The notes beneath the pieces were generated by a model. It was not told the origin of the DNA. It did not search any database and saw nothing but the letters and a program-made list of their open reading frames with translations. A DNA stretch of 59,490 nt, filler included, from Dugesia japonica (Eukaryota), in the NCBI GenBank assembly GCA_001938525.1. It is 4 parts of 4 records of this genome, joined end to end, with 100 filler letters (N's around TTAATTAATTAA, not from the genome) between each part and the next. Parts side by side here need not be neighbours in the genome. Positions count along the whole stretch, not along the records: positions 20,271 to 34,170 come from MQRL01626900.1; positions 34,271 to 43,456 come from MQRL01619720.1; 2 more parts are not named here. The stretch is one strand, 5' to 3'. Positions 11,421-44,693 of this stretch are shown here, piece after piece. The translations under genes were made by a program, and so were the position numbers. Numbering within the stretch: position 1 is the first letter of the stretch; the number at the start of each line of letters is the position of its first letter.

Positions 11421-11491
11421 TTTGTACATTACAACAATTTGATATAAACTTGAGATAAATTCCTGAGAATGAATCCAAGTTATCCATTGTT

Positions 11492-11807
11492 TATGTAAAA
11501 TTTAATAGTTCTAATGCTGCTAATGCAATTGGAAATAATGCAGCAAGGAATCCACTCTTTTGTGTATACATTATTTTTCTTATTAATTTCCTATTTTGTG
11601 TATTTACAAGTTAAAGCAATGACCTTTCATTACGTTGTAATGATAATTTTTTCTTTTTGCTGATATTACCACAAAAAATATTCAAAAAATTCTCTAGCAA
11701 AATCATCTATAATAAACCTTGGAAATGAATCTAACGATTTCTATGTTGACCTTTTTGAAACCCTTAGCAATACATTAAAATACGGAAGACTTTGTTTAAA
11801 TGTCATA
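11492..11807 (-). pseudogene. Polinton basic core-like protein with Q-x-(G/S)-G-F-L motif and amphipathic tail
   Basis: MTFKQSLPYFNVLL...RKIMYTQKSGFLAALFPIALAALELLNFT*, directly upstream of the integrase. Contains stops and a frameshift. Confidence 0.6.
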
Positions 11808-13453: not shown

Positions 13454-13571
13454 AATATGGCTATTAAATCTGTCACAGCCACTTTGGAATTTTGCATCCA
13501 GTTTAGAAAGAAATTTAACGGTTTTGTCACCTGTTGGTGTGGTACTCCAGATTTATCCTTACAGTAAATTG

Positions 13572-21609: not shown

Positions 21610-22880
21610 TATTCTATGATATAATGGAGCATGTAACGAGACTAAATTCTAAATCAAACATTCCCATCATTGGAAAAGTCGGAAGCTTCATTTTTCGTTG
21701 AAGATCGATAAATAAGATAATGTCCAAAGTTCTGGCGAGTTGACGTATCTATTTTCTGTTTACTCAGTTAACCACACGATGATAGTTCGATAATTCTACA
21801 TAGCCAAATTACGCATCAATAAAAAATCTACAACTGTTTTCTTTTGCACTGACAAATTCTACAATTAATCAACATTATCTGTTTTCAACTGCGACATTTG
21901 AATGAAATATCGACAATTTTCATAACTGTCACACACACGTCGTCGACCTGGATTTACTTTCATTAATATTAATATCTGAGTAGGATTTATAACGAGTATA
22001 GGATAGTAGTGTGTATGGCGAAAACTGACACCATTGCAATTGACTCATTTACATTCTTGTGAAAATTTCTGTAGTTATTTAATCACCAGTTGTCTGCAGG
22101 ATTATCATGATATCGATTATTAATAGACTCGTTACTCTGATTAAAAAGTAAGCATAGGAATATCCTGATGATTCGTTCGGTTACTAGTGTCAATCACCGC
22201 ATTATTATTCTGAGTACTATTACTGATATTACTACCTTTTTATTATTATCATTAACATACACATTGTCATTACAACTTCTATTATTACTATTATTTTATG
22301 GTTATTAAAAATATTTTTACGCTAATTTGTTTTATTATTTATGATTACTATTAAAAATTTTATCGTTGTTAGTACTATTGTGGCTACGATTCATATGTCG
22401 GTTATTGTGATTAAATTATCATCATCCCAATAATTATCATCAGCGAAATTATAATCATTGCTGTTATCTTCATATTTGCCACCAATAACAGTGGTGACAT
22501 TATTAAGTAGCTATATCATTCAGGTGGTTACGACGAGCCCAATCACTAACATCATTATTAAATTACTCCTTGCCGAAGATATTATTAATATTATCATTAT
22601 TAAGTTCCGATTAAAATTATAATGGATAGATATACCCACCATCATTATTACTATTACGATTATTTACGTTATTCTTCTTCTTATTATTAATTGTTATCAA
22701 TTACTATCATAATTACCATTATTATTATTACTATTAGAAATTATTTCATTTACTATCATGATTATCAATATTATTATTACTATTATTATTACTATTATTA
22801 TGAGTATTATTATGAGTATTAGTACAGTTATCATGATTGATTTAAGTATTATTATTAAATTTGATAGTATAATTATGAAC
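21610..22880 (-). pseudogene. Decayed Asn-rich ORF divergently oriented to array ORF A (copy 1)
   Basis: Long degenerate (ATT/GTT/ACT/ATC)n tract reads AAT/AAC/AGT/GAT on the minus strand. A similar tract precedes ORF A copy 2. Confidence 0.4.
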
Positions 22881-23142
22881 CAGGAATGCGCCTGTTAGGA
22901 TACTTATGATCATCGTCACTATTCCTGTACGCTTTTAATTGTTATTAACGGACTTCCTGCTGTCAACAATTCTGCTAGGCCAGGTAATAGATCTAGAGTC
23001 AGGGTAATATCTTGCCATGAGTAATGATCGCACCTAAGAAGTTTTGAGACATCAATTTTTCTTAAAACTATACTTAGCCCTAATCGATAGGCCCATAATT
23101 AGGTCGAGAAAAACTTAGGTTTAACTTTACATTATTTAGGAT

Positions 23143-23328
23143 ATGCCTGCTGAGCTAAAAAATTCACTACTCTTGATTTGGAAGCAGCGTAAATCGGCTC
23201 GGCTCAAACAGCTCATTGGTCACCGCTTGTTTCCCCAGCTGGTGGAGCATCCTGACGAGACAGACTTACAATGTTTCGTCGAGATGTTCTCATTGGGTTT
23301 TAACGTAGACATGGAGGAGGAAAATTAA
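23143..23328 (+). CDS. Array ORF A copy 1 (61 aa, unknown)
   Basis: tttag|GAT ATG start, AATAAA near 23374. Protein homologous to 25220 and 28353 (LLL...RLKQLIGHRLFP...HPDETDL.CF.EMF). Confidence 0.7.
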   Translation: MPAELKNSLLLIWKQRKSARLKQLIGHRLFPQLVEHPDETDLQCFVEMFSLGFNVDMEEEN

Positions 23329-23929
23329 TACTGACGTTAATGCATGCTCCAATTATGTACTGTCAGTTTCATTAAATAAAATGTATTCTAGTTAAATTTT
23401 TAGTTATCGATAAGTGTCCCGTTGCATTTATATCATATTATAAATTTAAATTGATCATAATGAACTGTATTTTATAGTGGAATGGTAGTCCACGTGTTTG
23501 AATGAGGAACTCAATCATAAAAAGGAATTGTTTAATACACAGCCACTGCAAAATTGTTCTCAGAATTATAAAAGTGAAGACTCATATTTTAAGTTAATCA
23601 AAAAAGGAAACGGCCAAAAGAAGAAATCTACACAAACTTATTTGCCCAAAACGGAAAAAGAAAATACATCAGTGTGTTTACCCGTTGCAGAAATCTGAAG
23701 ATTGATATAAAAGTAAATCTTTAGAATTTATATCATGATAAAAAAGTTTTAATTAAAAAATCAATTTTCGGTTATATTTATATCATGTTAATAATTTTAT
23801 GTCTATGCAATAATAAATGTTTATTAAATTAAATCAACTCATGTTTACTTCATATTATACACGTTTTTAAAATGTATACGGAAATATATAAAGTTTTAAG
23901 TAGCTTTCATTTAAAAAACAAATCACTCA

Positions 23930-25150
23930 TTTCAGTCAGAATTAGTATATTTCCGTGTCATTATTTTTATGCAATTGTAAGCGAGATCTAGGAAAATAAC
24001 TCCAGTGTTTGAGTAATATTCATAGATTCATTTGAGAATTGTTGGATTGATAAACATAAGAAATTTCCGATTTTCAGAAAAATGAAGCATTAATTCTTGT
24101 TATCAATAAGTCTACAGCAGGATAGTGTTTGTGTTCTTCAATGTTGTTGCATGCACGATAGTAGAAAAATCCACATGAAAGCTGACTGACGGAGAGTTAA
24201 TTCTGACTCATTTAACAACTGCCTTATAAGTGAGTGTTCATTGTAGTAGAAATTTGTCAGTTCTACCTTTTAATAATCGTGATATATGAGTCAGTCACCT
24301 TGTGCTTAGCATTTCTGATATCATCATTCCTGGTGGATAATAAAAGCGTTAACAGTGTTAAAGTTCATTGGTATTATTACTAATGCCTTGCTATTTCCAA
24401 TTATCAGTAATTAACTTTCGCAATATTCCAATTGTTATATAGTTTCTTGATGTTAACATGATTGCAACTGTTATTGATCCTAATAAGATTACTGATATTG
24501 TTAATAGCGTTAGGATCATTAATTTTAGCAGAATTATTAGTATTATTATTAGCATAAGNNNNNNNNNNNNNNNNNNNNNNNNNNNNNNNNNNNNNNNNNN
24601 NNNNNNNNNNNNNNNNNNNNNNNNNNNNNNNNNNNNNNNNNNNNNNNNNNNNNNNNNNNNNNNNNNNNNNNNNNNNNNNNNNNNNNNNNNNNNNNNNNNN
24701 NNNNNNNNNNNNNNNNNNNNNNACTGTTAGGGAATGTATTGTTATTTAAGTTAGTATCGTTGGAAAATGATTGTTCCTATTGTTGTGAATGTCGTTTATA
24801 TTACTATTATAAACACGGTGTTCACGATAAGTATAATGAATGATTGTCAGTATTCTAAATATGAACCTGGTTCTTAAGGTTTTTACACCATTACTACTTA
24901 AATTATTCTGTAACTTTATCATTAGGATTATCGTTATCGTTGTTGCTAAGGTTGTTACTAGTGTTACCTTGATTTTCCCTATGAAACATTATTGCCTTTA
25001 GTATTAAGGTTTTACTAAGTTAAACGAGCTTTCAAAACATCCTGTCTAATTATAATAATACACATTATGATATGATAATATAATCAGCGTTACCTAATTA
25101 TTATTAACAGTATTGAACGCCGGGTTTAGTTTTCTTTTCTTTAACAATCA
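23930..25150 (-). pseudogene. Decayed Asn-rich ORF (copy 2)
   Basis: Same low-complexity character and same position relative to ORF A copy 2. Interrupted by an N gap. Confidence 0.35.
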
Positions 25151-25219
25151 TAACGATATTTAATACGGTAGATTATGCCACATAAATCTTATGTTTAAAT
25201 AATCCCGGTATTTTAGGTC

Positions 25220-25410
25220 ATGCCGGTAGAATTCAAACATACACTGCTTTTGATTTTAAAACAACTTAAGACAGCACGCCTGAAACAGCTTATCGGACAT
25301 CGGTTATTCCCCAACCTAATAGAGCATCCCGATGAAACTGACTAAAGTTGTTTTTTTGAGATGTTCCCGTTGAACCGTAACGTAGATGTTGACAAGGAAC
25401 GAAACAAAAC
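25220..25410 (+). pseudogene. Array ORF A copy 2
   Basis: ttttag|GTC ATG; MPVEFKHTLLLILKQLKTARLKQLIGHRLFPNLIEHPDETD*SCFFEMFPLN. Many synonymous differences from copy 1. Confidence 0.75.
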
Positions 25411-25551
25411 TCGTAACTGCGTCTTAATTTGTTTTGTTAAATGTGGTTATTTTACTAAAATAAAATCTTNGACCTAATTTTCTGCTTCATAGTTTTTCTT
25501 TTTGCACATATATTGTTTATTTATATGTAATTTGTTTATGTGTAATTTCAG

Positions 25552-25880
25552 TGGAATTTAAATGGGAGCTGTTATTAGATCGTCGAACGGGTCGAATGAT
25601 ATTCAACCAGTATAAAAATCCATTTAACCGAGATGCTCGAGTTTTTGCGGACCGGTCCAACCTTTTGACCGAAGATGCAGATGAGGAACAACGATAGTAC
25701 GCCACTGAGCGTGACGCCTACTACGATTGGACAGGCCCCAATCATGCTCGCGAGGTGTATCACACCATTACAACTTCCTCTCCCGATAGTGATAGTGAAC
25801 TTCACACAAATATTGAGTGGAGGGAGGCCCCTCCGCTGTCCCGATATCTACACCGCACTTGCCCCCTTTTTCTGGGTTGA
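25552..25880 (+). pseudogene. Array ORF B copy 1
   Basis: tttcag|TG; EFKWELLLDRRTGRMIFNQYKNPFNRDARVFADRSN..., homologous to 28721-28988. One internal stop; AATAAA near 25953. Confidence 0.7.
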
Positions 25881-26102
25881 GCGAGTTCATTGATAACATG
25901 TTATGGGGACTCAGACTCCGAGAATCAATTAGATGTTTCTTGTTCGGTTAATAATAAAGATTTCATTGCAGCTTTGTCTTACTGCTTTCGTGGATTCATT
26001 AATGTTGTTTTTGTCTTTAATAATAGTTGAAATAACTTAGAGCCTGTTTAAGTACCATTTGATAGGTGAGAGTTCGTAGTTATTGATATAATTTTCTTGT
26101 AG

Positions 26103-26461
26103 TACATTCATCAATTAACCGATCAGTCGCTCCTACAAAGAAAGTTGGAGAAAGTAGCGAAGACATCGATATGACTTGGGATGTTTACCGTCTTGCTAAA
26201 CGCCACTGGGAGGCCGACACAGCTGCTGCTGAGAGCAAGGTAAAGCGGTATAAGAATAAGTGCATCATGTTTCGCAAGGAAGCCGAAGCTTAACATGCGT
26301 AGGAACGCANTTNGAAACAGCAATTAGAGTCNTATCCTGAAATCATCNNGNCCCTCTATGACCGTGAAAATAAACTGGTGGCAAATGTAGTGGAGTTGCG
26401 GAAACGTATGCCGCTTGAACCCTTGATGATAGACAAGTCAACACAGACCCCACCACCATAA
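26103..26461 (+). pseudogene. Array ORF C copy 1: coiled-coil protein with C-terminal DKSTQT
   Basis: ttgtag|TA; DMTWDVYRLAKRHWE...LYDRENKLVANVVELRKRMPLEPLMIDKSTQTPPP*. Two internal stops. Confidence 0.7.
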
Positions 26462-26597
26462 CAAGCTGTGATTAAATTTTATGTATAAAAATAAATTTTC
26501 TTGATTGTAATCTTATGACAGGTGTTCATTTCGTCCTCTTAATTTGTAATAATTTTTAAACTGAATTAATCATTCAAGTTAACTTATTTAATTGTAG

Positions 26598-26956
26598 TGC
26601 CTAGAATTATTTTACCAACAAGCCTTCGCCGTTGTAACAGGCTCATACAGAAATCTTTACTCAATCGCCACATCAAACTTCAAAACGAACGAGCGCTTCT
26701 ACGTTACCTCACACAGAAAAACCGCCTAATAAAAAAATTAGATGTTATCGTTAAAAAACAGAGCTGGCGGAACACATCAAGCAGGTTCTTCTCCATAAGA
26801 TAGAATTCTTACAACAATATATCGTGGATATTGCAAACCGCCTTGATCAAGAAAACGTGGACCCGTTAGAACAGCGACGATGACGTTGCTGCCTTTAAAT
26901 TCATGGATACCGTGCCTACCCAGTGGTTAGATCCTGGGATGCTGGAATTTATGTAA
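26598..26956 (+). pseudogene. Array ORF D copy 1
   Basis: ttgtag|TG CCT AGA; PRIILPTSLRRC...ERALLRYLTQKNRLIKKL...NSDDDVAAFKFMDTVPTQWLDPGMLEFM*, with frameshifts. Homologous to 29766-30125. Confidence 0.7.
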
Positions 26957-27014
26957 TTAGCGAAAAATATATCTTAATTTCAAGTTTTTTCAAGTCGTTT
27001 AATAAATAAAATAA

Positions 27015-27277
27015 TGGAAAAAGGTTTGAAAGAAAAGGTATACGAAAGAAAAGGTATACTTCAAGTATATGTTGGAAGTCAAGCGCTTTGTACCAATAGC
27101 CTAGTTAGGGACATTAGGTAAATTCTTGAACGGGTCCCTTGAGGGCTGTTTTTTCCCCAGCCCAATTTTTCTTGTATAAACTCAGGTGGGACCCCAAAAA
27201 TAATAATAATGTTGGGGTCTACCTGCGTTTGTTGTAGAAAGATATGACTGCGGAAAAAAGTAGCCCTCAGGGGATCC
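27015..27277. mobile_element. Two head-to-head element termini (CCCCAAAA | (AAT)n | TGTTGGGG)
   Basis: 27210-27277 is an imperfect inverted copy of ~27130-27199; both resemble ~30295-30364. Confidence 0.6.
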
Positions 27278-27790
27278 ATCCAAGAGGCGTTAAACAATGT
27301 TGTCCTGTGTCTATGACTATCTTTAGCCTTGCAATCGATTTTTTGATTCAAGATACAGCAAATAAATTTCCATTCATCAATACAGATTTTAATACAGCCA
27401 TCCTTGCCTACGCTGATGTCCAACAATCAATTGAAAAGTGTCTCTATGTTAAACAATATTGTTAGTCTCTCTGAGATCTATCAACTCCGGTTAAGACCCA
27501 GCAAATGTGGTTTCTTCACCAATAACAATCTGTTCACTTCGAGTGACGTTTAAATCTATGGCGAACATTTCCCAATCATCGATGAAGATAACCTTTACAA
27601 TTACCTCGGTGTGCCTTTTGGCGAAAAAAAGAAATGCAGCCTTGAAAAACTTATCTCTAAAGACATTGAGGACTACACCAAAATTTCTGAATCTGACCTT
27701 CATCCAGCTCATAAAATACAAGCGTATAACGTCAAAATTTACGAAATTCATAGTATATCCAATAAGGAGTATAGTTAAAAATCTGGTTCG
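27278..27790 (+). mobile_element. RLE-type (R2/NeSL-like) non-LTR retrotransposon RT fragment
   Basis: RGVKQCCPVSMTIFSLAID, LAYAD and YNYLGVPFG motifs. Confidence 0.85.
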
Positions 27791-28352
27791 GTGATCGATA
27801 AACATTTGATTGCCACCAAGTAGAATAAAGAAATTCCTTTAATCCTCGTTGCAGATTCTGAAACATTTTCAATAAGTATGAGTTTTGTTTCCGTTTCAAT
27901 TATATGTTAATCATGTAAGATAATCATTAAAAGTTACTTATTCTGTATTTATTAATCTGTGATTATGATTTTGTAGTCGATGATTAAACAGTGATACCCG
28001 ATTCGCACAGCCCAAATTGCACCTCGCACCTAACAATCCCGTAACTATCCTACTATAATTGGACGCAAACTTAAAATCAAAAAAAGTATTGAGTTTATAA
28101 AGATGGAATGCGTGTTAAAATATTCTATTACTCACACCGCTATTCAGGGATAGAGATTCAAATAACACCCTGGCTTCCAGAATTTGCAGATAAAGTAACT
28201 TGATTACTATGACTATGCAATTAATCTATATCATTGTTAGTCATATTTGCTACCATGATCGCTCTCAGCCGAAATCTGGGCTTATGTCTAATTTTCAAGG
28301 TCATACAATCTACATATTCAATTATGCCATCTTACGTTATTTTTTCTAGATC

Positions 28353-28523
28353 ATGTCCGAAGTTCTCCACACTACTTTACTACTAATCCGCCAAGAAAGG
28401 AAAATATCTCAACAGCGGCAAATGATCGCCCATCGATTGTTACCAAATAGGATCGAACCCCCAGGCGAGAAGGACCTCGCCTGCTTTGTAGAGTTGTTCC
28501 CAATAAATTCAAGTCGTGGCTAA
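28353..28523 (+). CDS. Array ORF A copy 3 (56 aa, below the ORF-track cutoff)
   Basis: ttctag|ATC ATG; MSEVLHTTLLLIRQERKISQQRQMIAHRLLPNRIEPPGEKDLACFVELFPINSSRG*. Confidence 0.7.
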   Translation: MSEVLHTTLLLIRQERKISQQRQMIAHRLLPNRIEPPGEKDLACFVELFPINSSRG

Positions 28524-28720
28524 TGTAATCTTTATTAAATGCTGGACTGTCGTCAATAAACATAACGTAATTTGTCGTTGACATGGTTCATTCCGAATGA
28601 TTTTTAATTCATTTTATAGTAAATAAAATATTCTACTCGTTACAAACTGTTGACTTCCTTTTATCTTCAATTGATTTTACTTAAATACATGTATACCTAT
28701 GTTATCCTTTTTATTTTTAG

Positions 28721-28988
28721 TGACCGAATTTGATGGATGTTGAAAGTAGATAAGGCCACCAGCCAAACAGTATTTCAACGTGTACTTAATCCATATAACC
28801 GGGACTCAGGGATACTAGTAGATCGATCAAACATGCCCCACGAAGTGGCAGCCGACCGCCGACAACTCGACTCAGCGGAGCGCTGGTGTTATCAACATTG
28901 GTCGAAAGACACGCAAACCTTTGGCGAATCCACCTTCCCTCTGTCCTCTCCGGAACTCGACATGGACAACTATTATGGGCACTACTAA
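28721..28988 (+). CDS. Array ORF B copy 2
   Basis: tttttag|TG ACC GAA TTT, then a 1-nt slip into WMLKVDKATSQTVFQRVLNPYNRDSGILVDRSN. AATAAA near 29011. Confidence 0.7.
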
Positions 28989-29258
28989 CCCATTTTCTCT
29001 TTTTGTGAGAAATAAAGATAATTGTTAATCGACTTCCAGCTCATGTTGTTTTATTCATTCTTACCAATTTGATTATAATCAAGGTTTAATTACTAATGGG
29101 TATTAACACTTTTGGATTAATAATTCTGTCCTTTACTTAAATAACTTCCTGATCAATATTTAAGTTTATTCCCCACAGGTTTAACACTAAACGAACCTCA
29201 CACTTTTTGACTAGTTAGAAGGTTGCTGGTAATATTGAATTAAATTAATTTCGTCTAG

Positions 29259-29616
29259 TGAATTCATCCCGTTATCGGTCTGTCGCTCTCATTAAGAAAA
29301 TAAGAGAGAGAGGTTAGGACCTCGAGATGGCCTGGGATCTGTACCGGTTATCGAAAGGAAAATGGGAGACCGAAGTTGCTAATAAAGTGCCATAGCTAAG
29401 CGGGCTCGGACTCGTTGTAAGGAGCACAAGCTTGAGATGAAAGTCTCCCACCATTAGAACCGCCTCTGGAAAGACCAGTTAACAACTCACACTGAAGTAA
29501 TCTAGTCCTTGCATCAACGTGAGACATAACTAGTGATTAATATTATAAAGCTGCGGGAACAACTACCATCCAAGCCGTTATCAAAAGACAAATCAACGCA
29601 AACTCCCCGCTCGTAG
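29259..29616 (+). pseudogene. Array ORF C copy 2 with DKSTQT
   Basis: gtctag|TG AAT; DLEMAWDLYRLSKGKWE...SLHQRET*LVINIIKLREQLPSKPLSKDKSTQTPRS*. Confidence 0.7.
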
Positions 29617-29765
29617 AATTATTAATGGAAAAACTCATGTAATGTAAAATAGATATTTGGAATGATCGTTATCAATTTTTCTTTGATGTTCATACCCCTG
29701 TTGAAAATTATGTCTTTACTAGAATTCTGTTGCCTTTATTTATCTGATAATTGTTTTTATTCTAG

Positions 29766-30125
29766 TGCCCAGAGTCGGTTTACCCAATTCTCTATGTCGA
29801 TGCTACAAGTTATTGACGAAATTCATCATAGAAAGACACTTTTCGAAAAAAAGTGAGCGGACTTTGCTCAGGCGACTGTCGCAGAAAAATTGTCTAATTA
29901 AAAAGCTCGAGGTCTCTAGTAAGAAACAGCTGGGATCGCGAGTTGCACCAACAATCAGCTTTTTAAAAAATTACTTTTCTAAAACAATACATCGCCGACT
30001 TGTCTGTGCGTCTCGAATTGGAAAAGTGGACTTTATGAAACAGTGACGATGACGAGGCCACGTTTGACTTTGCACACGTTGAGCCCGCTCAGTGGTTAAA
30101 CCTTGAAGAGATACATTTTATGTAA
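29766..30125 (+). pseudogene. Array ORF D copy 2
   Basis: ttctag|TG CCC AGA; PRVGLPNSLCRC...ERTLLRRLSQKNCLIKKL...NSDDDEATFDFAHVEPAQWLNLEEIHFM*. Confidence 0.7.
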
Positions 30126-30529
30126 AAATAAGTGTTTCATACAAATCACACATTTTTGTTTCAATAGTTATAGGTAAAAGGGAAAATGTAGAACCCGAAA
30201 CAGCAGGATGGGAGCGTGTACTTAAAGTACGCGTTGGTAGTCAACAACTCCATTCATAAAAGCCTGGCCATAGATGCTAGGTTAAATTTTTCGCGGGGTT
30301 CACGGAGTGCTGATTTTCCCCAACACCATAGTTTTCTATTCCTCACTAAGATGGATCCCAAACAATAATAATATTAATAAAAATAATAATAAAATGCAAC
30401 TATACTAGTAGTTATTTCTTCATTTTCTACTTGTTCCGTAGATACTACCAGGCTCTTTATCCTATGTAGTGTGTAGTGTCAATATGGTACATAAATGTTT
30501 TTACTAGTTCACACTCACTCATCTTCATT

Positions 30530-31001
30530 ATTAGTGAGTGCGACATTTTTGTTCTTAAAGCTTTACAACTGGTGGTTTTTCGAACAAATTGTTTTATTGA
30601 GACCGGCTTATTACTTTCATAACAGTCAAGGTATGACTGATGTTTTAATTATTATTCTTTATTGTTATGCCTTTTGCCTTCATCGTTGTTATATCACTCA
30701 AAAGGCTTTAACACTTCGGCATCAAGAAAATCCATTCTTTGAAGTAAACCCCTTTACTTTCGTCCTTAAATTTCTCAATGACTGAATTGAGACTCTTACT
30801 GTAAAAGTGGTGGCTTGTGTTGTAATTTGATATGTCCAATAACTGGTCCTTCACCATCAAACCGGTTATCTTTTCCAAACTTATGCCTACAACTTCAAGG
30901 AAAAGGCTATCAGTTTCTCCGGCTACTATATTTATTTTACGACGGTATTTTTCCAACTTCAATATACTGTAGTTTGTACATTCGTAAATTTGAGAGGTCA
31001 A
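30530..31001 (-). mobile_element. Polinton protein-primed DNA polymerase B C-terminal fragment
   Basis: AGETDSLF (DTDS motif), LDISNY...HHFYS...VIEKFKDE, EWIFLMPKC*S, KAKGI. Confidence 0.9.
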
Positions 31002-31036
31002 GTACTGTCTGTTTAATGTAGCTCAGACGATCTAAA

Positions 31037-32300
31037 TGTTGGGTTACTAGGCTTTTGATGTTCTTTTTGTTACTTCTGTCCTGGTCGAAATGTCGTTTTC
31101 TTGATTAAGATTTCTATCTGAGTGATGATACTTTGTAGCCACAAGAATTTGTGTGATGTCTTCTCTGGCGTCACGATTCCCCATTCCCGAATTCAGCGGG
31201 ACTATGCTGTGTCTTGTGTTTATTAATTTCGCCTTTATTGGCCCTATTCTTTTTGTGCTGTTGTATTTTGTTAACACGGAAAGCTTACAATAAAACTCTA
31301 ATTACTTTTAAACAATAACTTTATTTCGATATTTATAACATTATTCGTACAGATTAATGATTTCCTCGTGCTTTTATTTTTTTACGTCCTTGTTTGCTCT
31401 CCACGTCTTTGTCAGAGCCCGGACCGTTGCTATTAAATTTCTTTCACGATCGGCGTTTGCTTTTTTAATATCCACTCTAATCCGACAGGTCTGTATTAGG
31501 GCGAGATCGCGCTACTTTAATTTGACATTCTTCTCAAAACCATTGAACCGGCGCGAATCGTTTCTCGAAATAATAATATTTTTGATTGAAAATAATAATT
31601 TTAGATTTCTTGTTTCACACATATAATTAAGGATATAAACATGATTGATTATAAACAATTTAATATTAATATATTATTCTAATTTGGAATTCATTCCTCT
31701 TTCGCTACATATAATTATAATTTCTAAATTCCACTTCTTTCTTTAAATTTAATAATATTTATTCGATAATAATAAAAAATAATAATATTTATCACAAAAT
31801 AATAATAATGATACNTTTTAATGTTTTAATAAGCACAATCTTTGTCCAATATTTGTCCAATCTCCAATAATACAATCATCCTCTTCCTCCATAATCTGGT
31901 GGTCCTCTTCTTCTGTTATTTGGCTTTCTTTCTCCACGGTCTGTCAATCCACTTCTTTAATCTGATAATTTTCGTCATCAGATAAAATGATAACGTCTTC
32001 CTTCCTTTCCTTGGCTGGAAAACCGTTCATTTCATTTCCCCTAATCTCCTTAAATAAATTTCTATTCTTTCTTATAAATTGTGAAATATGCTGTGCATTC
32101 TGTGTGTGGAAATTAAAATATGTCCATACACTTATTCTTTTACAGTTAGAACAGATGTAGTATCTTATCCCATAATACCATTGACCATAATATTTCTCCA
32201 TAATATCTTGCCAATGGTCATTATGAACTGGACTTCAGCAGTATTTTGTACAAAATTTACATCGGTCGAGAAAATATTAACAGATTCATTATAAATACTA
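31037..32300 (-). mobile_element. Second-family small-ORF element end (terminus TGTTGGG at 31037)
   Basis: 31037-31280 is homologous, in inverted orientation, to 38100-38361. Carries ORF H (31341-31622) and a CxxC zinc-finger/acidic ORF (~31830-32270). Confidence 0.65.
31341..31622 (-). pseudogene. Array ORF H copy (coiled-coil, SIM-like tail)
   Basis: MCETRNL...RDLALIQTCRIRVDIKKANADRERNLIATVRALTK...EEIINLYE*, homologous to 37727-38042. Two internal stops. Confidence 0.7.
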
Positions 32301-32879
32301 CATTAACATGATTAATTATTTTAGACTGTATAATTTGCAACAATGTTGCATATTGAAACTTATGTTAATTATATAACATTTCTATAATTTTTATTAATAT
32401 AACAAAATAAATAACTTAAATATATCAATTGAAATTATATGCATGTCTTAAAATTAACTTGCAAGTTTTAAATGCAAAATAAAGCAAATCAACATAAATT
32501 CAAAATCACATCATTATTATTATTTAAAAATCAATCAAATCATATAAAAAGTCTATAATTTATTATTATTGAGATTAATAAAACTTTTAAAATAAATCTA
32601 ACTTCAAAAATAAAATATCAATTTTTAGTGACAATTGAAATAGATTATTTGCTTTGAGAGAAATCGTATAAAATAGTTCAGAATCGCTTTCTGTTAAATA
32701 TTTACTTAATTCTTCTAATTCTGTTATGTATAATTCATTTTTCAACTGTATAGTATGATAACTTACTTTAGAATACTCTATTTTAAATTTTACATATTTT
32801 ATTGGATAATCTTCTTTAAATATTGTATAAATATTACTATAATACTTAAGATCCATTTTGTTAGTCTTATGTGGGAATC

Positions 32880-33350
32880 TAAATCTATTTTCGATTTTTA
32901 CATTTTCAAATATAATAAAATATGGTTATTCACAACTAATAGTTAAATAACCCATATGAGATATATAAACGTTTTCATTTTCACTGACAGTCAAGGATTG
33001 NNNNNNNNNNNNNNNNNNNNNNNNNNNNNNNNNNNNNNNNNNNNNNNNNNNNNNNNNNNNNNNNNNNNNNNNNNNNNNNNNNNNNNNNNNNNNNNNNNNN
33101 NNNNNNNNNNNNNNNNNNNNNNNNNNNNNNNNNNNNNNNGATTTTGAAGCTCAACAATGAATTTACTAGCATTATTATTCGGATGAATAAGAGGACAGCT
33201 ATTACTCGGTAAATGTGTATAGAAATCATTCGATTTCATTATAAACTAAGTTTGATGCTAATATCTAAGTAGGTTTTTCATATCCAACCCACTTAACATA
33301 ATATTGTTTATTCTTTTTTGTCCTTTNGACTTTATAATTTTTTCAATTCG
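32880..33350 (-). mobile_element. Polinton integrase chromodomain end plus minor capsid (penton) start
   Basis: VKWVGYEKPT*I, followed by MKSNDFYTHLPSNSCPLIHPNNNASKFIVELQN. Confidence 0.85.
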
Positions 33351-33359
33351 AAATATCCT

Positions 33360-33532
33360 CGGTGGAGGAATCACATGTAATTCTTGCTCATAGAACTTTC
33401 ACTGCGGCTATCTGAGCTTCTCAATAATTTTGGCGAGTCTGTACAGCTCCCAAGACATCCCTTGGTCATCGCTGTATTCTCTTCGACACTTACAGGTGTA
33501 TAAAGGGGTTGATTGTGCTCTATTGTTACTCA
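33360..33532 (-). pseudogene. Array ORF C copy 3 (5' fragment)
   Basis: cttctag|TG AGT...EYSDDQGMSWELYRLAK aligns with DIDMTWDVYRLAK and DLEMAWDLYRLSK. Confidence 0.65.
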
Positions 33533-33779
33533 CTAGAAGATAAAGAATCACTTATTTTTTATTTATCAATAGCATTTTGAGGATTATTTAATAAAGAGAG
33601 TTTACAATAAAATAATATGCCCATTTTTTGTATTTTAGTTAGCAAGAAAGTCACTATAGAAGTATGTGTGTCTTAGTTAAAAAGAAAAGTATTTAATCCC
33701 AATTTTACAGTAAAAAACACAGAATGAACGATCCACAGACATTTCCTATAAAATACATTTCCTTTATAATATATTTCCT

Positions 33780-34170
33780 ATATAGTAAATTTTTAACTTT
33801 TTCTGAGCGTATACTTTGTTCCTCATCTTTGTTTGTTGTTTTGTATATTTTAACGTTTCTTTTCCTTTTTGGATCCTCATGTTTGTTTAAACACTGCTCG
33901 CAATCTGGTAATCGTGAAAGTGCATCAGCATTAATATGTTCACGACCTTTTTTAAATTTTACAATCATATCAAAGATTTCCAGTTCAGCTTTCCATATGT
34001 AGTATTGTGACGTATTTTTGCTATTTCAAATAAGCATCCATTTTAATGCTTGATGATCTGTTCTTACTACAAATTATTATCCCATTAAATAGTGCTTAAA
34101 CTTGAGAACAAACACATATATTGCCAGAAACTATTTTTTTGTGATGCAGTACTGTTTCTGACTTTTTGTT
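33780..34170 (-). mobile_element. Gypsy RNase H fragment
   Basis: QYCITKK*FLAI...FKHYLMG..FVVRTDHQALKW...KKGREHINADALSRLP. Confidence 0.9.
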
Positions 34171-34297
34171 NNNNNNNNNNNNNNNNNNNNNNNNNNNNNN
34201 NNNNNNNNNNNNNNTTAATTAATTAANNNNNNNNNNNNNNNNNNNNNNNNNNNNNNNNNNNNNNNNNNNNATCTTTATTTTTATTTTAATAATTATT

Positions 34298-34330
<33 letters not shown>

Positions 34331-36563
34331 AATAATAAATTGACAAATTATTTTAAAAAATTTACCACGAAATCTGTCCAAGTTATTGGAGGTTTCAGGC
34401 TTCTGAGGATTATAATAGTTAATAGTTACATTTTTACCATTGAAATGCATATTTAGTTTATTATCGTGAAATTGAAATGTCATATTGAATTCATTTTCGT
34501 TCTTAGTGATTTCTATGTAAATTAATAATTAAACGAATAATATAAGTTTATAAAATTTATAAATTTTTGTCTTGATATAAATTTCATTTTTAAAATTTTA
34601 GATAGGTCATTGGTGAACTTGTGCCAATTTTGTAACCAATTTCTTGTTAATAGTCTTTAATTTGATTTAACTTACTTTAACCAAAATCAAGCAGCTGGTT
34701 GAAGAAATGCAGGCACTCCACCTTTTTTGCATATGATGTATTAATACATTTATATATGACTCCTAGCACTATCAAAAGTAACAGAATTCTATTATGAGGA
34801 AGAGTTACAACTGGAAATATAATAAAAATCCACTTTGTGATTAAATTTAGTTAATACATGATTTAAGCCCGGCAAGGTAGACATCTTTTACTCCATTTTT
34901 TTAAAAACTTTTTTCTTTTCTCCTTTAATAATTATTGTTGGTGATGATTCTTAAAGTTCATTTTTTTAAAAACCTTACCAATTAGAACATCGTAAAAGGA
35001 AAATTTTAAAATAAATACATCAATTTACAAATTAGTAATGTGTAATTAATACAAAAATTGTAAATTGCTGGTGGATTTTTGGNNNNNNNNNNNNNNNNNN
35101 NNNNNNNNNNNNNNNNNNNNNNNNNNNNNNNNNNNNNNNNNNNNNNNNNNNNNNNNNNNNNNNNNNNNNNNNNNNNNNNNNNNNNNNNNNNNNNNNNNNN
35201 NNNNNNNNNNNNNNNNNNNNNNNNNNNNNNNNNNNNNNNNNNNNNNNNNNNNNNNNNNNNNNNNNNNNNNNNNNNNNNNNNNNNNNNNNNNNNNNNNNNN
35301 NNNNNNNNNNNNNNNNNNNNNNNNNNNNNNNNNNNNNNNNNNNNNNNNNNNNNNNNNNNNNNNNNNNNNNNNNNNNNNNNNNNNNNNNNNNNNNNNNNNN
35401 NNNNNNNNNNNNNNNNNNNNNNNNNNNNNNNNNNNNNNNNNNNNNNNNNNNNNNNNNNNNNNNNNNNNNNNNNNNNNNNNNNNNNNNNNNNNNNNNNNNN
35501 NNNNNNNNNNNNNNNNNNNNNNNNNNNNNNNNNNNNNNNNNNNNNNNNNNNNNNNNNNNNNNNNNNNNNNNNNNNNNNNNNNNNNNNNNNNNNNNNNNNN
35601 NNNNNNNNNNNNNNNNNNNNNNNNNNNNNNNNNNNNNNNNNNNNNNNNNNNNNNNNNTGAACTATTTAATTTATTCATTAAATTTTTGAAATGCGAATAA
35701 TATTATAATAAAAATATTATAAACGATTAAAAATTCATGTAAAATACAAACCTAAATCCGACATTAAATATATATGTGTTTGCACGAAATTTAGAAGGAA
35801 ATTATAGTATCTAATTTCAAGACTATAATCTGTGAGTTCAACCCATAATGTTCGGTAACTATTATCTATTGCATAAAATATCAATCCCTGATATTTATTC
35901 ACATAAATTCGTAAACCAAGTCCTTCTTCCAAGAAAAAAGCTTCCTTTTCAATTTCCAAACTTCCTTGCCAAAATGAATTTGAAATTTCTGAAGAAAAAC
36001 TAATTGATTCATCTATTTGTTGAGCTGAAACAAAAGAAGCTAAATTTTATAAATTTCACCAAAATTATTAAAAACGTTTTATTTAATTTCATTATTATAC
36101 TTTAATTTTATTGGATTCGTTGTCAATAATTTAATTGGAATAATTTAATAGTAATTGTGGGAGAAAAGTTTCAAAAAACAAAATAATTTAATTTTAATTT
36201 ATGAATAACAATTATTGCTAGAATAATTGTTGGATTTATCATTTCTCAGAATTCATTAAAATAAAAGTTTAGATCAAAAATTTTTTTTTGGTTTTTGATA
36301 ATTCTAAGACGAACAAAAGTCAATTCCTGACAAAGACAAAGTCGAAAATATTTATTATCAAAAACCAAATACAAAAAAATACTGGATCGAAGATTTTATT
36401 TTAATGAATTAATTTATGAAAATTATATTTCTTCAGAAAATGTTATAATGAAATTAATATTTTCTTATTTATAATATATTAGTAAGTTTAATAATTATAT
36501 TAATTTTGAACTGTTTAACTTTGATCGTATTAAATTAAAACTGTTAAATTTTAATTTGCATTA

Positions 36564-38361
36564 ATGCCAAAAGGGTGTTCATTCCAGTCAACCATCATAA
36601 ACAATATGCCTGATCTATGGAACTCCATCGGCAAGTATGAAACGCACCATGATCCATGGTGGATCACTCAGGATCGCCTCCGACAGAAGGATCAGGAGCT
36701 GTTAACTCTGATAGAGAAATTGAATCAACAGAAGGAGACACTACGACAGAAGATCGCAATACTGGAGGAATTGCAGAAAGGAGTGGAACAACAAGAGCAG
36801 CACTACAACGATCAGCCAGTGGAGATCATTAGCAGGAATGAACGACGGGAAAAAGAAATGATATCTTTGNNNNNNNNNNNNNNNNNNNNNNNNNNNNNNN
36901 NNNNNNNNNNNNNNNNNNNNNNNNNNNNNNNNNNNNNNNNNNNNNNNNNNNNNNNNNNNNNNNNNNNNNNNNNNNNNNNNNNNNNNNNNNNNNNNNNNNN
37001 NNNNNNNNNNNNNNNNNNNNNNNNNNNNNNNNNNNNNNNNGAAACTTTAGTGTGATTAATGTATGATCATTGTGTTAACAGCAATACAGTTTTAACTCTA
37101 GTATTTTCATGTCTTGATTATATTACATAATAATGTGTTAAAATGAATCAACGGATAAGGAGGAGTTAAAATAGAAATTCGTTTTAAATGTTTGTGAATC
37201 CTGATTTAAAATGATAGTGATAGATAATATGCTGAATGATTTTTATNNNNNNNNNNNNNNNNNNNNNNNNNNNNNNNNNNNNNNNNNNNNNNNNNNTACT
37301 ATATACAGAACTGCATCAACATCAACAGCGAGTAATCCAAAGTTCGCGTACTACTCAGCTTAAAGCAGAAAAATTCAACAAGATGTCGGATCGGTTAAAC
37401 ATAAAAGTCGAAGCTATGTTACGACAGATTCTAATACCGCTCGATGGAACTATTGAAAANNNNNNNNNNNNNNNNNNNNNNNNNNNNNNNNNNNNNNNNN
37501 NNNNNNNNNNNNNNNNNNNNNNNNNNNNNNNNNNNNNNNNNNNNNNNNNNNNNNNNNNNNNNNNNNNNNNNNNNNNNNNNNNNNNNNNNNNNNNNAGAAA
37601 TTCGTTTTAAATGTTTGTGAATCCTGATTTAAAATGATAGTGATAGATAATATGCTGAATGATTTTTATATTTTATAAAATAATTGTATAATTAAAGTTA
37701 TGAATATTATGTCAAATTATTTCCAGTGACGGATACAAAGAAATTAACGAACACTTCGATCGCGGATATTCGAAAAAGTGGGCATCGTTACAAAAGAAAC
37801 TGCAGTAGTAAATCGTAGAGCTACAACGAAAGAATGCTACGTTATGTGAAAAGAACACCAGATTACAGGAGCAAGATCTGGCATTAGGTCAATCATGTCG
37901 GGCAATGGTGGACATTATTAAATCGTATGCGGATCGGGAAAGCGTCATGACTGCCACGGTGCGTACGCTCACACAAGCATCAAAATTAACGCCTGAAGTG
38001 GAAAAAGAAAAGCCAAAGGATATCATTGAGCTGGACGAGTAATCTTGATTGAAATAAAAGTTTTGTACAGCATGTATTTTGAATTTTTTTTGTTAATATT
38101 GATTAATGAAGTCTAATTTCCAAAACGAGAGACGGATAGAAATTGAAATCTAAGACGGGATACAGCATAGTCCTGCTGAATCCGGGAAAAGGGTGATCGC
38201 GTTACTAGAGAGAGTAACACAAATTTCTGTGGTTGCTAGGTATCATCTCCCAGACAGAAAAGAGATTTAGAAGAAAGAAACAAATATGATAAAGTGATTA
38301 TAAATAAAGATCAAGAGAAACACAAGATTAAAACAACATCAAAAAGCCTAGCAACCCAACA
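36564..38361 (+). mobile_element. Second-family small-ORF element: three helical/coiled-coil ORFs then a terminus ending CCCAACA
   Basis: ORFs at 36564-~36870, ~37297-37459 and 37727-38042 (ttccag|TG, ends KDIIELDE*, AATAAA near 38053). Terminal ~260 bp homologous to 31037-31280. Confidence 0.65.
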
Positions 38362-38689
38362 ACTTAATTAAAATTAAAATAATTTGACTTAATTTAAACA
38401 AAGAATCATTAAAAACCATCAATTAAAGCAAAAATAACTAAAATCTATTGATTACGTAACAATTACGTCATCATTGTATAACTATGACGACATCATTTCA
38501 TAACCATGGAAGCATTTCGTAATCAGCATACATTGAATTTCAACCAATCAAATTGAAGCCTATAAAAAATTTTAGGGTTAGTGAGGCTGTGCGGACCTAT
38601 TCCATTACTGTTTTTGAATTAATTTTAATTACTGAAGTTTTATTTGGTTAATTTTTATTTTTTTAACTTTAATTATTTTATTACTATAA

Positions 38690-39110
38690 ATTACACTGAT
38701 TTTAGGATTATCTTCGTTAATTAGTAATTTTTTCCCATGAAGTACGGAAATGTAGCCTCTTCTTAGTGTTTCCTATTTATGTGATGTTTTTCTAATAAAA
38801 TTTTATGTTTGTGTTAAAATTGTTTGAAGACTTCACTTTCTTTTTGTTTGAGATATTTCTTAATTTTTTTTCGGATGGTTCTGCATGTTTCACTTATATT
38901 TGTTTCTTTACATAAGGTGCATGTTTTTTTATTAGTAAATTTTTTTCTTATTGCATATGTTTCTACAATCACTAATGCATTTAGGATCACAAAAATATTG
39001 TCGTGGTTTCTGTAATTGGATGCATAAAGGTACTTGCGTTTTGAATATGATTTTTGGATTGTGCTTGAGTTTAGACTTTTTATATTATATTGTGCATAAT
39101 TTTGCTACAT
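38690..39110 (-). mobile_element. Penelope-like element GIY-YIG endonuclease fragment
   Basis: TCTLCKETNISETCRTIRKKIKKYLKQKESEVFKQF matches the C..C...YIGET.R....R..EH pattern in degenerate form. Confidence 0.7.
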
Positions 39111-39600
39111 TTCTCATTATAAGATAGTTTTGTTAATCAGATTAAAATTTTTTGTATTTTAAAGCGAAATTTATTAAAGCCAGATTTTTTTTATATTTGA
39201 ATTAGAAAAATAATTTATAAAATAAATTTTTAAAATTTAATTTGTTACAACTAAGGAATGAGAAATTTAGAATGTGTGTTGAACATAAAATTTTAATGTG
39301 TATTAAATGAAATGTATATTTTTACTGTATTTTAAAATCTGATATTGATAAAATTTCAAAATTAAAATATATTTGAATAGAATAAAATATGAAATGAAAG
39401 AAATTGAAATATGTTTGTTTAGGGTATTTTAAAATTTGATATTAATAGAACTTTAATATTAAAATATTTAATAAATGCTGATATTGAATATTTTTCTTTT
39501 TTGAATATGAATTTTTAAATTTGTTTGAAAAAAGTAAATTTATGCTTATTAGTTTTTAATTGTGAATAAATTTTGCAATGGAATCGAGTTCTGATATTAA

Positions 39601-39997
39601 ACGTCATCCATAAATGACGTCACACGATTTTTGATGATTCTTTGCGCTTGTCACGCTTAGTCACAAAAAGTCAGACCCCTCATCTGCATCCCCTACGCCA
39701 TTCCCCTATTTCTAAAAATGAAAATTTAAAGGTTCCAAATAATTATTTGCTACGTTGAAAGACAGAAATAGCGGTGTTCAGCCGAGAGCTGTGTCCAGCC
39801 TAAAAAATGCATCCCTGATGCTCAACAGTGCATTATGTGGCTCAGTTACAGGAATATATTAAAATAGTTAGAATTCAATACTCTCATTTATTTTGATGTG
39901 ATGTCACATATCTTAGACTCCCCTCCCCCTCATCATGCATCGTCAAAAATGTATCACCCCCTCCCCTAATCGTGTGACGTCATTTATGGATAGCCCA
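39601..39997. mobile_element. MITE with TIRs (ATCCATAAATGACGTCACACG / CGTGTGACGTCATTTATGGAT), Harbinger-like
   Basis: Perfect ~21-bp inverted repeats ~390 bp apart; right end GCCC followed by ATTA. Confidence 0.7.
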
Positions 39998-40529
39998 TTA
40001 ATGAGTATTTCAAACTCATCTAACATGGTGGCAGTGGTAAACACCGATGCAATCACGGAAAGATAGTTGCCAAAAATATTTTACAGAGGCGATGATCTAG
40101 AGAAGCTTATTAAACGGGGTGAAATATAAGTCGAGGCAAAGAGCATCGTTATTAAGAAATATCATGTATACTTGATAAATATTTAATGGCAGAAAGCTGA
40201 CGGATATCGTGAGAGATTGAGATTAGCTTTTGAGAGCAGAGAGGCGTAATAAAAGATGAAGATAAGATATAAAAGGTAATTTAATTACTGTCTTTGTTTT
40301 TGGTTTGATTTTATTATTTTCATATAATTTTATTTGAGTAGCCGTTGTACGTATTTATTTTGTAACAATTTGAGAGAAGTCAATTTCATTTCATCATTTG
40401 AATATAGTAACTCAGCTCGAATTCTTTCACCTTTAATTATACCCATTTTCTGGTTGATGGTAGTATTACAGTAAAGTAAAGATTTTATTGGGTAGTGGGT
40501 AGATGTGAACCCTCTCCCCGCCTGTCCCT

Positions 40530-40660
40530 AAAGAAGCTTGGAAAGAATTCCCAATAAAAAAGCTTGTGAAAACACTTGAAATTCCCATTAAATAAGCACC
40601 GAAAAAAATTCCATTAAACAAGCTTGTGAGGACACTGGGAATTGCCATTAAATTAGCTTT
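40530..40660. repeat. Degenerate tandem repeat (aagctt...aattccc.ttaaa, ~27-33 bp units)
   Basis: Repeated aagcttg and aattccc.ttaaa motifs. Confidence 0.6.
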
Positions 40661-43600
40661 TGAATAAAAAGGATATCAAATCCTAAAATTAATGTTCATT
40701 TGACGGATTCAACATCGCTCTTAAAATTATTTTATTGACTATTTATTACGATTGTATAACTGAAATTAAATAGTCATTTAAACTTTGTAAATAGTTCGTT
40801 TTGATATTCTTTAATTGCCTGATGATGACGGTTATTCAGACAAAATTGATTGAAACAAATAAATATTTTATTTTTATGAAAAAGTTGCCAATGTTTATGA
40901 ATTTTTTTAAATACAGATTTATATTAATTTTATAGAAAATTTATTAAAGATTAAACTTTTTTTTAAAGATTTAATGAATTTAATTCAGAAAATGACCAAA
41001 TATACAAGAATGGTTAAATTCAATGATAATTTGAAAAATTTCAATGAAATAATTATAAAAAAACCCAGTGGTATATTTTTGTTTGTTTGTATGTAGCATC
41101 ATTATAATCACATCCATCAATAAAGCTGGACCAAAATATAATACGAACATTATTTGAAATTGGTTATTTATCCATTAATATTTATAAAAATAATTAAAAT
41201 ATACTTTCAACGTCGTTGATTGAAAATGAAATTTTCCGTTACTAATATTTAATGCAAATTTTAATTATTGATCTAAAAATACTAAATAAATTTCTTAAAT
41301 AAATGTTGGAAATCTAGATGGATCAATTCCCATTGAAGGACATAAGAATATAGTTGATATTATAAATGACTTCTTTGAAAGATACAAAGAACATATAGCT
41401 ATTCTAGAGATTACCAATAATGGTTTCATGTCTTGTTAATTTGTATCACTTTTCAGATGCATGTTCAGATTCATAATTAAAGCCGCGTGATATTTCTATT
41501 TTTCATATTTCTATGAATACAAATAAAATAAGAAATAACCTTTCTTGAATAATCGATATATTAATAATGGATTGTATTATAATTATTATTATTGATTATG
41601 ACAATGTGAACTTTTAATTAATAGTACTTTTTATTTATAATATTTTTTAATTTAATTTAATTTAATTACTTTACTATTATTTTATTTTAATGTTAGACTT
41701 GATAATTACTTAACATTTTTCTAATAAAAAAATTCTATAACTATTTGTCTAATTTATTATTATTTTTAGTAAGTCATTTATATCCCTTAGAGCAAAACTT
41801 TATGAATTATTATTTATGTGGGCATATCCGTTTAGATAAACTGCGTAATAAAACTGAAAATGTTTTATAAATCGCATATTTTAAAATTCGCATTTTTTGT
41901 GACAAATAACACTGACGTCTAGTAATTAAATATTTTTATCCATTCTTTATGAATTTATAAAAAACTATATTATTTTAAAGAGTAATAGATTTTTAGACTT
42001 ACCTTCTACCTAATTTACAATTTTAAATTTAGAAATTAAATAAATTAAATAACCGATTATCTATATGGTTGCGATCCATGTTGCATTTTAAAATAAAGAT
42101 TTAAATGTTATAACAATGGATTTTACGAATTTCTTGGGAGAAATATAAGTAAAAGACCCGAGTAATATAATTGTTTTATTCATACAACACTTAAGAAAAC
42201 TCCAACTCTCCACTGACTCATTCTATTAAGTTTTATTATTTTTTCAAAATGTTTGCATATTTTCGATAAAGATGTATAATATATTATTTCTATATATATT
42301 ATTTAAATTATATATATTATTTATCTATATATATATATATTATTTATGTCAATAATTTTCAGTCACTTTTTAGCCAACTCTCTTGGCAACAACTGTCAAA
42401 CATTTACTGACCTTCCTAATAAAATTGTCTAAAAATTTACCCCTCCCCCACAAATTAACAATATTTTAACTAATATTTTTTATTAATTCAAGTTATTGCA
42501 AAAAAATTTGTTGACTGTAAAAATTCTTCAAATCACCTCGCTCAAATTTTGTTGAGATAATTAATGGACGGCCTCATTGTTATCATTATTTCTTTAATAT
42601 TTTTATAATTCATACTAAATTCGAACTTGTAATTTATTCAACTACTGTGATCAAAATTTCAAGTATAGTAAAAATAATCCAAATAACACGTTTAGTATTA
42701 CCATTGGATTCTAAACTTTTGTGAAAATCTTCTCATTTCATAAAAAATTAAATGTATAATGGAGTAAAATCTTAAAAATTTAAATCTATTTCCCTTTAAA
42801 AATAGTTTCTTACGAAATATTTAAATGAATTGAACAATTTTAAATAGTTTAGATATAAATGAATTAAATTACAATCTAAATAACTATTAAGTGAACATAA
42901 ACACGTTCAAACATTTTATTTTAAAATAATTTTAATTTAATTTATAATTTTAATTTAAATATATTAAGTAAAAATTTACTTGTATTAAGGTTTAACATCC
43001 AAAATACTATTAAAAATTTTATTTCCATAAGCATTGTAAATTCACAATAATATTTAAACTTTCAAATTTTAGATGCAATTGGTTTAATCTGATTGGTTTT
43101 ATAAACAAGCCAATAAAAAGCAACAAAAAATTCAAAGCATTTCCCCTTTAAATTCTATTATCTTAACTAACTGTAAAAAGCCACTAATAAAAACTGAATA
43201 ATAATTACTGTTTAAAGTTTGAAAAATCTAAAAAGAATTTTATTTTCTGATCTATCTGTTATTAAATAAAAAAACATTAGACCAATTACAAAAAGTAATA
43301 TTTTTTAGTGATTCTGAATTTTTTTTGTTTAGTCTAAAGTTTCAGAAATATTTTATTTGAAATCAGTAATTGTTTTTACAAATCTGAAATACAAATTTTA
43401 AGTCGAAGTAAAAACAACACTCTAAAGAACAAGGCTAAATATTTATGATTCGTGTTNNNNNNNNNNNNNNNNNNNNNNNNNNNNNNNNNNNNNNNNNNNN
43501 TTAATTAATTAANNNNNNNNNNNNNNNNNNNNNNNNNNNNNNNNNNNNNNNNNNNNAAACTTTACAAAATATGAATTCAAAATGATTACACAATCGGGTA

Positions 43601-44327: not shown

Positions 44328-44693
44328 TTAAATCTTTGCTTTTAAACGTTTAATTACAAGATATGATTTTAAAGGGAATACAACTTTTCCATCAAATAGA
44401 ACTGGTTTACTTTCATGAACAAGACTCACACCTAATGCAGGAGCATTGTATTTCTTATGAATAATTTCTAATGATATTCCAATTTTAGCATCCACGATCA
44501 CTTTAATTTTTGAATCAAAATAATTCAGGCAAGACAACTGAATCGATGAAACTGGCTTGATCAGTTGTGGTTTAATGTATAAACCAGTTTTACGAATTCT
44601 TAACCCTAGTATTCCATAAAGGACACTATCTACATAACTAGAAGCTGATGGAAGATATGAACCGCTCCATAAATTACTGTCATTAGACCAAAT
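44328..44693 (-). CDS. PGGHG: PGGHG-like last exon
   Basis: Follows a 49-nt intron; ctttag|ATT TGG; IWSNDSNLWSGSYLPSASSYVDSVLYGILGLRI...KAKI*. Confidence 0.85.
   Translation of the reverse strand: MWSNDSNLWSGSYLPSASSYVDSVLYGILGLRIRKTGLYIKPQLIKPVSSIQLSCLNYFDSKIKVIVDAKIGISLEIIHKKYNAPALGVSLVHESKPVLFDGKVVFPLKSYLVIKRLKAKI

Follow-up and report, generated by a model that had tools for sequence, protein, structure and literature searches.

Small open reading frames in a repeated element of Dugesia japonica may gain their start codons by splicing to a shared leader

In the adenovirus major late unit one leader is joined to many alternative acceptors, with separate polyadenylation (poly(A)) signals, and the late open reading frames (ORFs) carry their own ATG; the first exon shared by adenovirus pTP and polymerase gives whole codons. 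A start codon assembled across the splice junction is described for the springer-subclade insect endogenous retroviruses (errantiviruses), in which splicing joins env to an AU belonging to its start codon (10.1101/2023.08.03.551782), and in flatworms the spliced leader ends in ATG and can supply a start codon (PMC7653826). Here we describe a 59,490-nucleotide (nt) stretch of Dugesia japonica DNA (assembly GCA_001938525.1), hereafter the window, in which four parts of four records are joined with filler letters between them (positions 20,271 to 34,170 come from MQRL01626900.1 and 34,271 to 43,456 from MQRL01619720.1). It holds what appear to be decayed copies of a repeated, likely mobile, element in which small single-exon ORFs stand in a row. 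Each is preceded by an acceptor-like AG of its own, and several of these ORFs begin with TG directly after the AG (AG|TG). To the reading that a shared non-coding leader ending in A completes an A+TG start codon for the ORF families B, C, D and H we give even weight; to a shared A-ending leader of any kind, its trans-spliced form included, somewhat more.

The ORFs lie in collinear units of the order A-B-C-D-E, two of them in tandem at 25217-27212 (unit 1) and 28350-30395 (unit 2), with a third, deleted unit (unit 0) at 23140-23698. A fragment of ORF C lies outside the units, and ORF H with its 3' segment X forms a separate block in two copies (37727, plus strand; 31622, minus strand). The original prediction had reported TG immediately after the acceptor in B at 25552 and 28721 (ORFs 25550..25880 and 28719..28988), in D at 26598 and 29766 (26596..26956 and 29764..30125), in C at 29259 (29257..29620) and at 33532 on the minus strand (a 5' fragment, 33429..33534, joined to a chromodomain-like fragment) and in H at 37727 (37725..38042), all on the plus strand unless stated, and TA in C copy 1 at 26103 (26101..26461). 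All of these sites are confirmed, as is an ATG 3 nt past the AG in all three copies of A, whose first base after the AG is at 23140, 25217 and 28350 (23138..23328, ATG at 23143, 61 amino acids, open; 25215..25402, ATG at 25220, with an internal stop; 28348..28523, ATG at 28353; all plus). The TA is private to C copy 1, since TG stands in 7/7 related contigs listed over the site (two in run X10, five in run X2). An eighth AG|TG site, not in the earlier prediction, was found in a third, deleted B copy (23476..23698, plus), which reads AG|TG GAA at 23478. A decayed, single-copy ORF Z reads AG|NNN ATG at 27977 (27975..28200, plus), and ORF G, also behind an acceptor, has its own ATG six codons in and runs into a gap (36586..36869, plus). 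For the minus-strand H copy (31341..31622), the genomic ATG said to occupy the equivalent position is present; there is no AG, and the upstream alignment to the other H copy is not above shuffles.

Could such a row arise by chance and hand-picking in decayed repeats, with no special mechanism? The sites were picked by eye, no RNA junction is among those listed, and two frames are broken early: in B at 28721 and in H at 37727 a frameshift follows shortly after the TG, and the frame there rests on the first few codons. The C fragment at 33532 shows weak similarity (E 0.004-0.15). Against this, TG follows 18/369 acceptor-like YAG sites elsewhere in the window (4.9%) and 0/4 acceptors read in the host gene; for four TG families among six to eight, p = 1e-4 to 2e-3, the families having been picked after being seen. 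The newly found B copy also has TG, the exception in C is private, and TG is conserved at saturated divergence, so that we regard chance as very unlikely. A T-rich tract accompanies every site, with 18 to >68 nt free of any other AG, the G+C fraction steps up from 0.13-0.32 to 0.32-0.50 across the sites, and no upstream in-frame ATG occurs before a stop at 9/9 AG sites of B, C, D and H. Because ORFs with their own ATG also keep an acceptor, the AG appears to be a signal in its own right. Judged from these sequence comparisons, the AG|TG pattern is real and selected.

The conservation of the TG itself bears on whether it belongs to a start codon. Across an alignment of 400 codons, the fraction of identical bases at positions 1, 2 and 3 is 0.60, 0.75 and 0.36, and synonymous differences (pS 0.61-1.02) exceed nonsynonymous ones (pN 0.13-0.41), as expected of protein-level selection on the ORFs. 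Silent sites are saturated, because third-position identity is 0.36. The G of TG falls at a third position and is nonetheless unchanged in 6/6 within-family comparisons (two in B, two in C, one in D, one in H; C copy 1 is counted by its relatives), for which 0.36^6 gives p about 0.002. An internal valine or leucine codon would let the G drift; the fixed G therefore points to methionine or a near-cognate start, and at the aligned codon one H copy reads ATG in the genome. These data point to a junction codon that behaves like a start codon, most simply ATG. Conservation cannot name its first base, and a leader ending in G, giving a GUG start, fits it equally well.

The main rival follows directly from this last point: the same acceptors would receive a leader, either a cis exon or a host spliced leader, that ends in G or C, and translation would begin at GUG or CUG. 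It accounts equally for the conservation of TG. G is the usual last base of an exon and is also the last base of nematode SL1. Flatworm leaders end in G as well (PMC7653826), and the match of two related contigs ends at the A of B's AG. However, four unrelated ORFs would then all depend on weak starts other than AUG, in a row where A, Z and G begin with ATG, and one H copy has ATG at that codon. A flatworm leader would moreover bring in a strong AUG out of frame, two bases upstream; joined at these AGs, an AUG-ending leader is in the wrong frame for B, C, D and H, in agreement with the earlier argument that it would create no in-frame ATG. We consider a GUG or CUG start unlikely.

If the leader instead ends in A, one non-coding leader exon, likely spliced in cis, would be joined to any one ORF. 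A+TG would form the start codon of B, C, D and H, with A, Z and G using their own ATG, and unspliced RNA would be unable to start the B, C, D and H proteins. The donors would lie ~990 nt upstream of A. On the plus strand, A|GTRAGY sites occur in 19,000-29,800 at 22148 and 24230 only, 992 nt before the A0 acceptor and 987 nt before the A1 acceptor. The first is a candidate leader end and donor for unit 0 (A|GTAAGC, 22118..22153) and the second for unit 1 (A|GTGAGT, 24200..24235); both have a strong donor sequence preceded by A. With a background of 0.28 such sites per kilobase, the nominal chance of a spacing match within 15 nt is ~0.008. A third, weak candidate, A|GTAAGT with its GT at 36482 (36452..36487, plus), precedes the G-H cluster at a distance of 106 nt from the G acceptor. 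Degenerate (ATT)n tracts lie 5' of A, after the candidate donors, in unit 0 (22200..22880) and unit 1 (24360..25100), their similarity being low-complexity only; in unit 2 a reverse-transcriptase fragment lies there instead.

Alternatively, an upstream coding exon, shared or private, might give the ATG, the junction codon then being an internal methionine, valine or leucine at a phase-1 intron. A mini-exon with an ATG and a donor does lie 76 nt before D copy 1, and AG|GT stands 37 nt upstream of the acceptor in both plus-strand C copies. But no donor with an in-frame ATG within 300 nt upstream is common to the copies of any family, and the C candidates have an in-frame stop and no ATG, the third C copy lacking the site. 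The private mini-exons entertained in the original prediction (near 26515) fare no better, that one being absent from the second D copy and none being conserved in any family. TG in four families would be left unexplained, and a shared phase-1 coding exon would not be in frame with A and Z; a coding exon upstream thus seems to us improbable. As an observation in its own right, AG|GT stands exactly 37 nt before the acceptor in the two C copies (26066, 29222) and also in A copy 0; it could mark a tiny intron.

The spacing of poly(A) signals bears on how single-ORF messages might be formed. With a shared cis leader ending in A, one mRNA per ORF would be formed by the use of alternative poly(A) sites. 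All three B acceptors have an AATAAA 93-103 nt upstream, and one D acceptor has it at 108 nt; the other D acceptor has none, and before C the signal is more distant. The same signals would suit an operon resolved by trans-splicing of a leader RNA ending in A, host- or element-encoded: AATAAA precedes the next acceptor by 93-108 nt in 4/7 spacers (three A-to-B, one C-to-D), an arrangement that resembles nematode operons, and the spacers are T-rich and 136-270 nt long. We know of no A-ending spliced leader, however. Those of flatworms end in ATG (PMC7653826), for other groups the sources consulted give no terminal letters, AATAAA is common here (0.0036 per nt) and candidate cis donors exist, and an operon of this kind is accordingly doubtful in our view, no less so than a coding exon upstream.

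The least probable of the alternatives is that TG itself is the 3' splice site, a flatworm-type AUG-ending leader being joined after it to yield the same proteins. TG acceptors do occur beside an AG (PMC2374985), flatworm leaders carry a terminal ATG that serves as a start codon (PMC7653826), and an AUG of this kind joined at their AG would be in frame for A and Z. Yet the TG acceptors reported comprise 36 human introns, where TG is always an alternative to an AG and never the sole site, and in the rows seen in that source it lies at least 3 nt from the AG rather than 2 (PMC2374985).

We therefore return to the leader ending in A, against which several points must be weighed. The match in donor spacing was noticed after the fact, and one of the two spans holds a gap of 164 N, a size that is estimated. 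The two candidate leader ends and their flanks align no better than shuffles. A is not the usual base at donor position -1, and upstream of unit 2 there is a reverse-transcriptase fragment and no candidate leader. The H evidence is weak, given the frameshift in one copy and an ATG in the other that may be an accident of decay. In two related contigs the alignment breaks off exactly at the A of B's AG (25550), and 292 and 183 unlike letters follow; of the two runs, one appears to be DNA, and an upstream exon ending in AG, which would give GTG, and a diverged genomic intron both fit. Finally, among the matches listed for five raw RNA runs and three contig runs there is no joint or loose end at the acceptors, where cover is 0-3 reads. 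An apparent likeness of the two candidate leader regions was also considered and rejected, not being above shuffles. The earlier proposal of one leader spliced to alternative acceptors thus gains from the start-like junction codon, the lack of an upstream ATG, the AATAAA signals and the candidate donors; the spliced junction, the leader's last base and the cis mode of splicing are predictions.

The RNA alignments came from 5/7 raw RNA runs (6-26% of each) and the three contig runs, on 26352-34170 and 22900-26309; H at 37727 lies outside these regions, and no RNA dataset was listed for 28000-31600. Oligo-dT reads of relatives, nearly all <90% alike, cover the cores of A (depth 6-10) and of B and C (1-3) on both strands, with zero at A2 and D2. 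On splicing at these AGs the RNA result neither supports nor refutes the proposal. In run X2 contig depth on the A core sums to 5862, whereas contigs that are near-identical reach 7-10. Relatives may therefore number in the hundreds, though the depth figure is no copy number. The units thus appear to be members of a family with many copies and weak transcription. In run X9, contig depth is highest (590-900) at 27124-27285, around the end of unit 1 and the inverted copy that adjoins it.

Amino-acid identity between ORF copies is ~35-70%, and most copies have stops or frameshifts. Units 1 and 2 terminate at the same aligned point, followed by (AAT)n. Each ends in an ORF-like region E with terminal stems (27014..27212 and 30173..30395, plus), the two being identical at 129/186 positions; the stems are weak (z -0.3 to -2.4; compensatory pairs 1/12), and E, whose starts are unlike between copies, was left out of the AG|TG cases. 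An inverted copy of the last 73 nt of unit 1 (27212..27285, minus; 57/73 identical) adjoins that unit, and between it and unit 2 lie the decayed reverse-transcriptase fragment (27281..27729, plus) and then ORF Z. Segment X (38048..38370, plus) matches its minus-strand counterpart at ~31330-31040 at 225/307 positions. The tail of the deleted B copy at 23478 resembles the end of C by eye, with no tblastn match.

What kind of element is this? Homologue searches with D and A, and a full HMMER search with C (1.84 billion representatives), found no homologues, and an exact look-up of nine ORFs matched 0/9. Viral contigs returned no locus for D, A, the alignments of A and B or a polymerase-B (PolB)-like piece, with one relative of A counted; metagenome searches with A found no relatives, and phages gave no match. 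Pfam searches on 45 and 10 pieces placed no small ORF above cut-off, and PDB sequence searches gave no match. The predicted fold of A is two helices (predicted local distance difference test, pLDDT, 82.8), with no structure match at E 0.001; that of B is of low confidence (pLDDT 49.7). Rfam gave no hit at gathering score and two unrelated sub-threshold hits (E up to 1).

The units have no long terminal repeats (LTRs), in that no long direct repeat flanks them, and no gag, env or gypsy-type pol was found in them. The reverse-transcriptase fragment (RVT_1, E 0.045; no PDB match) lies 5' of unit 2, is absent before units 0 and 1 and may be a separate insertion; by motif resemblance it looks non-LTR-like (R2/NeSL-like) rather than Penelope-like. 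The 3' end with a simple-repeat tail shared by units 1 and 2 is not specific to non-LTR retrotransposons, and no endonuclease domain (Pfam, PDB) or target-site duplication was seen in these decayed copies. A decayed PolB-like fragment (30460-31030, minus) abuts one H copy; it is presumably Maverick-like by its motifs and had no database match (Pfam, viral contigs, PDB, phages). Related reads in run X12 are strongly one-sided over this region (25.5 vs 1.8), which may reflect a relative that is transcribed. One C copy is adjoined by a chromodomain-like fragment (Chromo E 0.055), and neither neighbour is common to other copies. Mavericks/Polintons carry genes for a protein-primed PolB, an integrase, an ATPase and a capsid between terminal inverted repeats; no ATPase, capsid or long inverted ends were found here. 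The common 3' end, its tail and the adjoining reverse-transcriptase fragment hint at a retroelement; the internal poly(A) signals and the Maverick-like neighbours fit a DNA element better.

The window is AT-rich and gap-containing, mostly 20-30% G+C, rising to 35-39% across 25.0-31.0 kilobases, with gypsy, mariner and hAT fragments and one long-intron gene resembling a glycosyl hydrolase (Pfam). This host gene (44328-55010, minus) is very divergent, its likeness to family 65 being weak (Pfam E 0.0005), with exons 2.5-4.5 kilobases apart; a homologue search with a host-gene exon gave no relative. Integrase/chromodomain-like fragments, which we take to be Maverick-like, are related to one another (1395-2022, 10936-11525, 48658-49585 and 33172-33400; 68-75% DNA identity; Chromo E 0.003). 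At 12938-13552 (minus) a frame of 204 codons is open; it contains an internal repeat and has no Pfam match. At 20340-20372, (AAT)n precedes a G-rich hairpin, the first letters of which agree with those of the junction at 27205-27220. An exact 74-nt duplication beside gaps upstream of H (37173-37246 and 37596-37669), with a coiled-coil-like short frame between the copies (37297-37459), is probably an assembly artefact, and the same 12-nt palindromic spacer between N runs (20215-20226, 34215-34226 and 43501-43512) is likely a scaffolding linker.

If a shared leader ending in A is indeed at work, it would be a compact form of control for a multi-gene cassette, in which unspliced RNA is kept untranslated. 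Gene finders would miss or mis-start every such ORF, and starts missed in this way may explain why no relatives appear among ~15 billion predicted proteins. A wider proposal, which we hold tentatively and at somewhat less than even weight, is that these units represent an undescribed high-copy animal element family in which one leader acts as a universal one-base donor of start codons, the unrelated orphan ORFs being translated only after splicing and one per mRNA, so that full-length or read-through RNA would yield none of their proteins. In its boldest form the leader would be a separate, trans-spliced RNA ending in A.

How does this row compare with known systems? The likeness to the adenovirus major late unit put forward in the original prediction lies in the proposed use of one leader, many alternative acceptors and separate poly(A) signals; no adenovirus-like protein was found among the ORFs tested (homologue, Pfam and fold searches), and with no adenovirus link found the closer precedent is springer-group env. 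Spliced-leader operons are alike in their closely spaced single-exon ORFs, each with an acceptor. Terminons, which are giant Penelope-like retroelements, form head-to-tail arrays and carry coiled-coil ORFs, and both they and Burro are invertebrate giant elements with accessory ORFs (PMC6431247); in contrast, no hammerhead ribozyme (Rfam), telomeric repeat, LTR or polyprotein was seen here. The available parts of PMC2481426 and PMC10680173 contain nothing on A-ending leaders, and the literature searched, which included few subscription papers and not Repbase, did not describe an A-ending leader used in common by several ORFs. The element family is apparently undescribed. As is proposed for the row described here, the downstream ORF of a mobile element completes its start codon in springer env by splicing to a 5' leader, but there the codon is split AU|G, for one ORF, in an LTR element with gag, pol and env (10.1101/2023.08.03.551782); in D. 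japonica the split would fall after the A (A|TG) and serve four or more unrelated small ORFs, and neither LTRs nor gag or env were found. Start codons made by splicing are already documented for single mobile-element genes, and their repeated use from one leader over four unrelated ORFs would be the new part.

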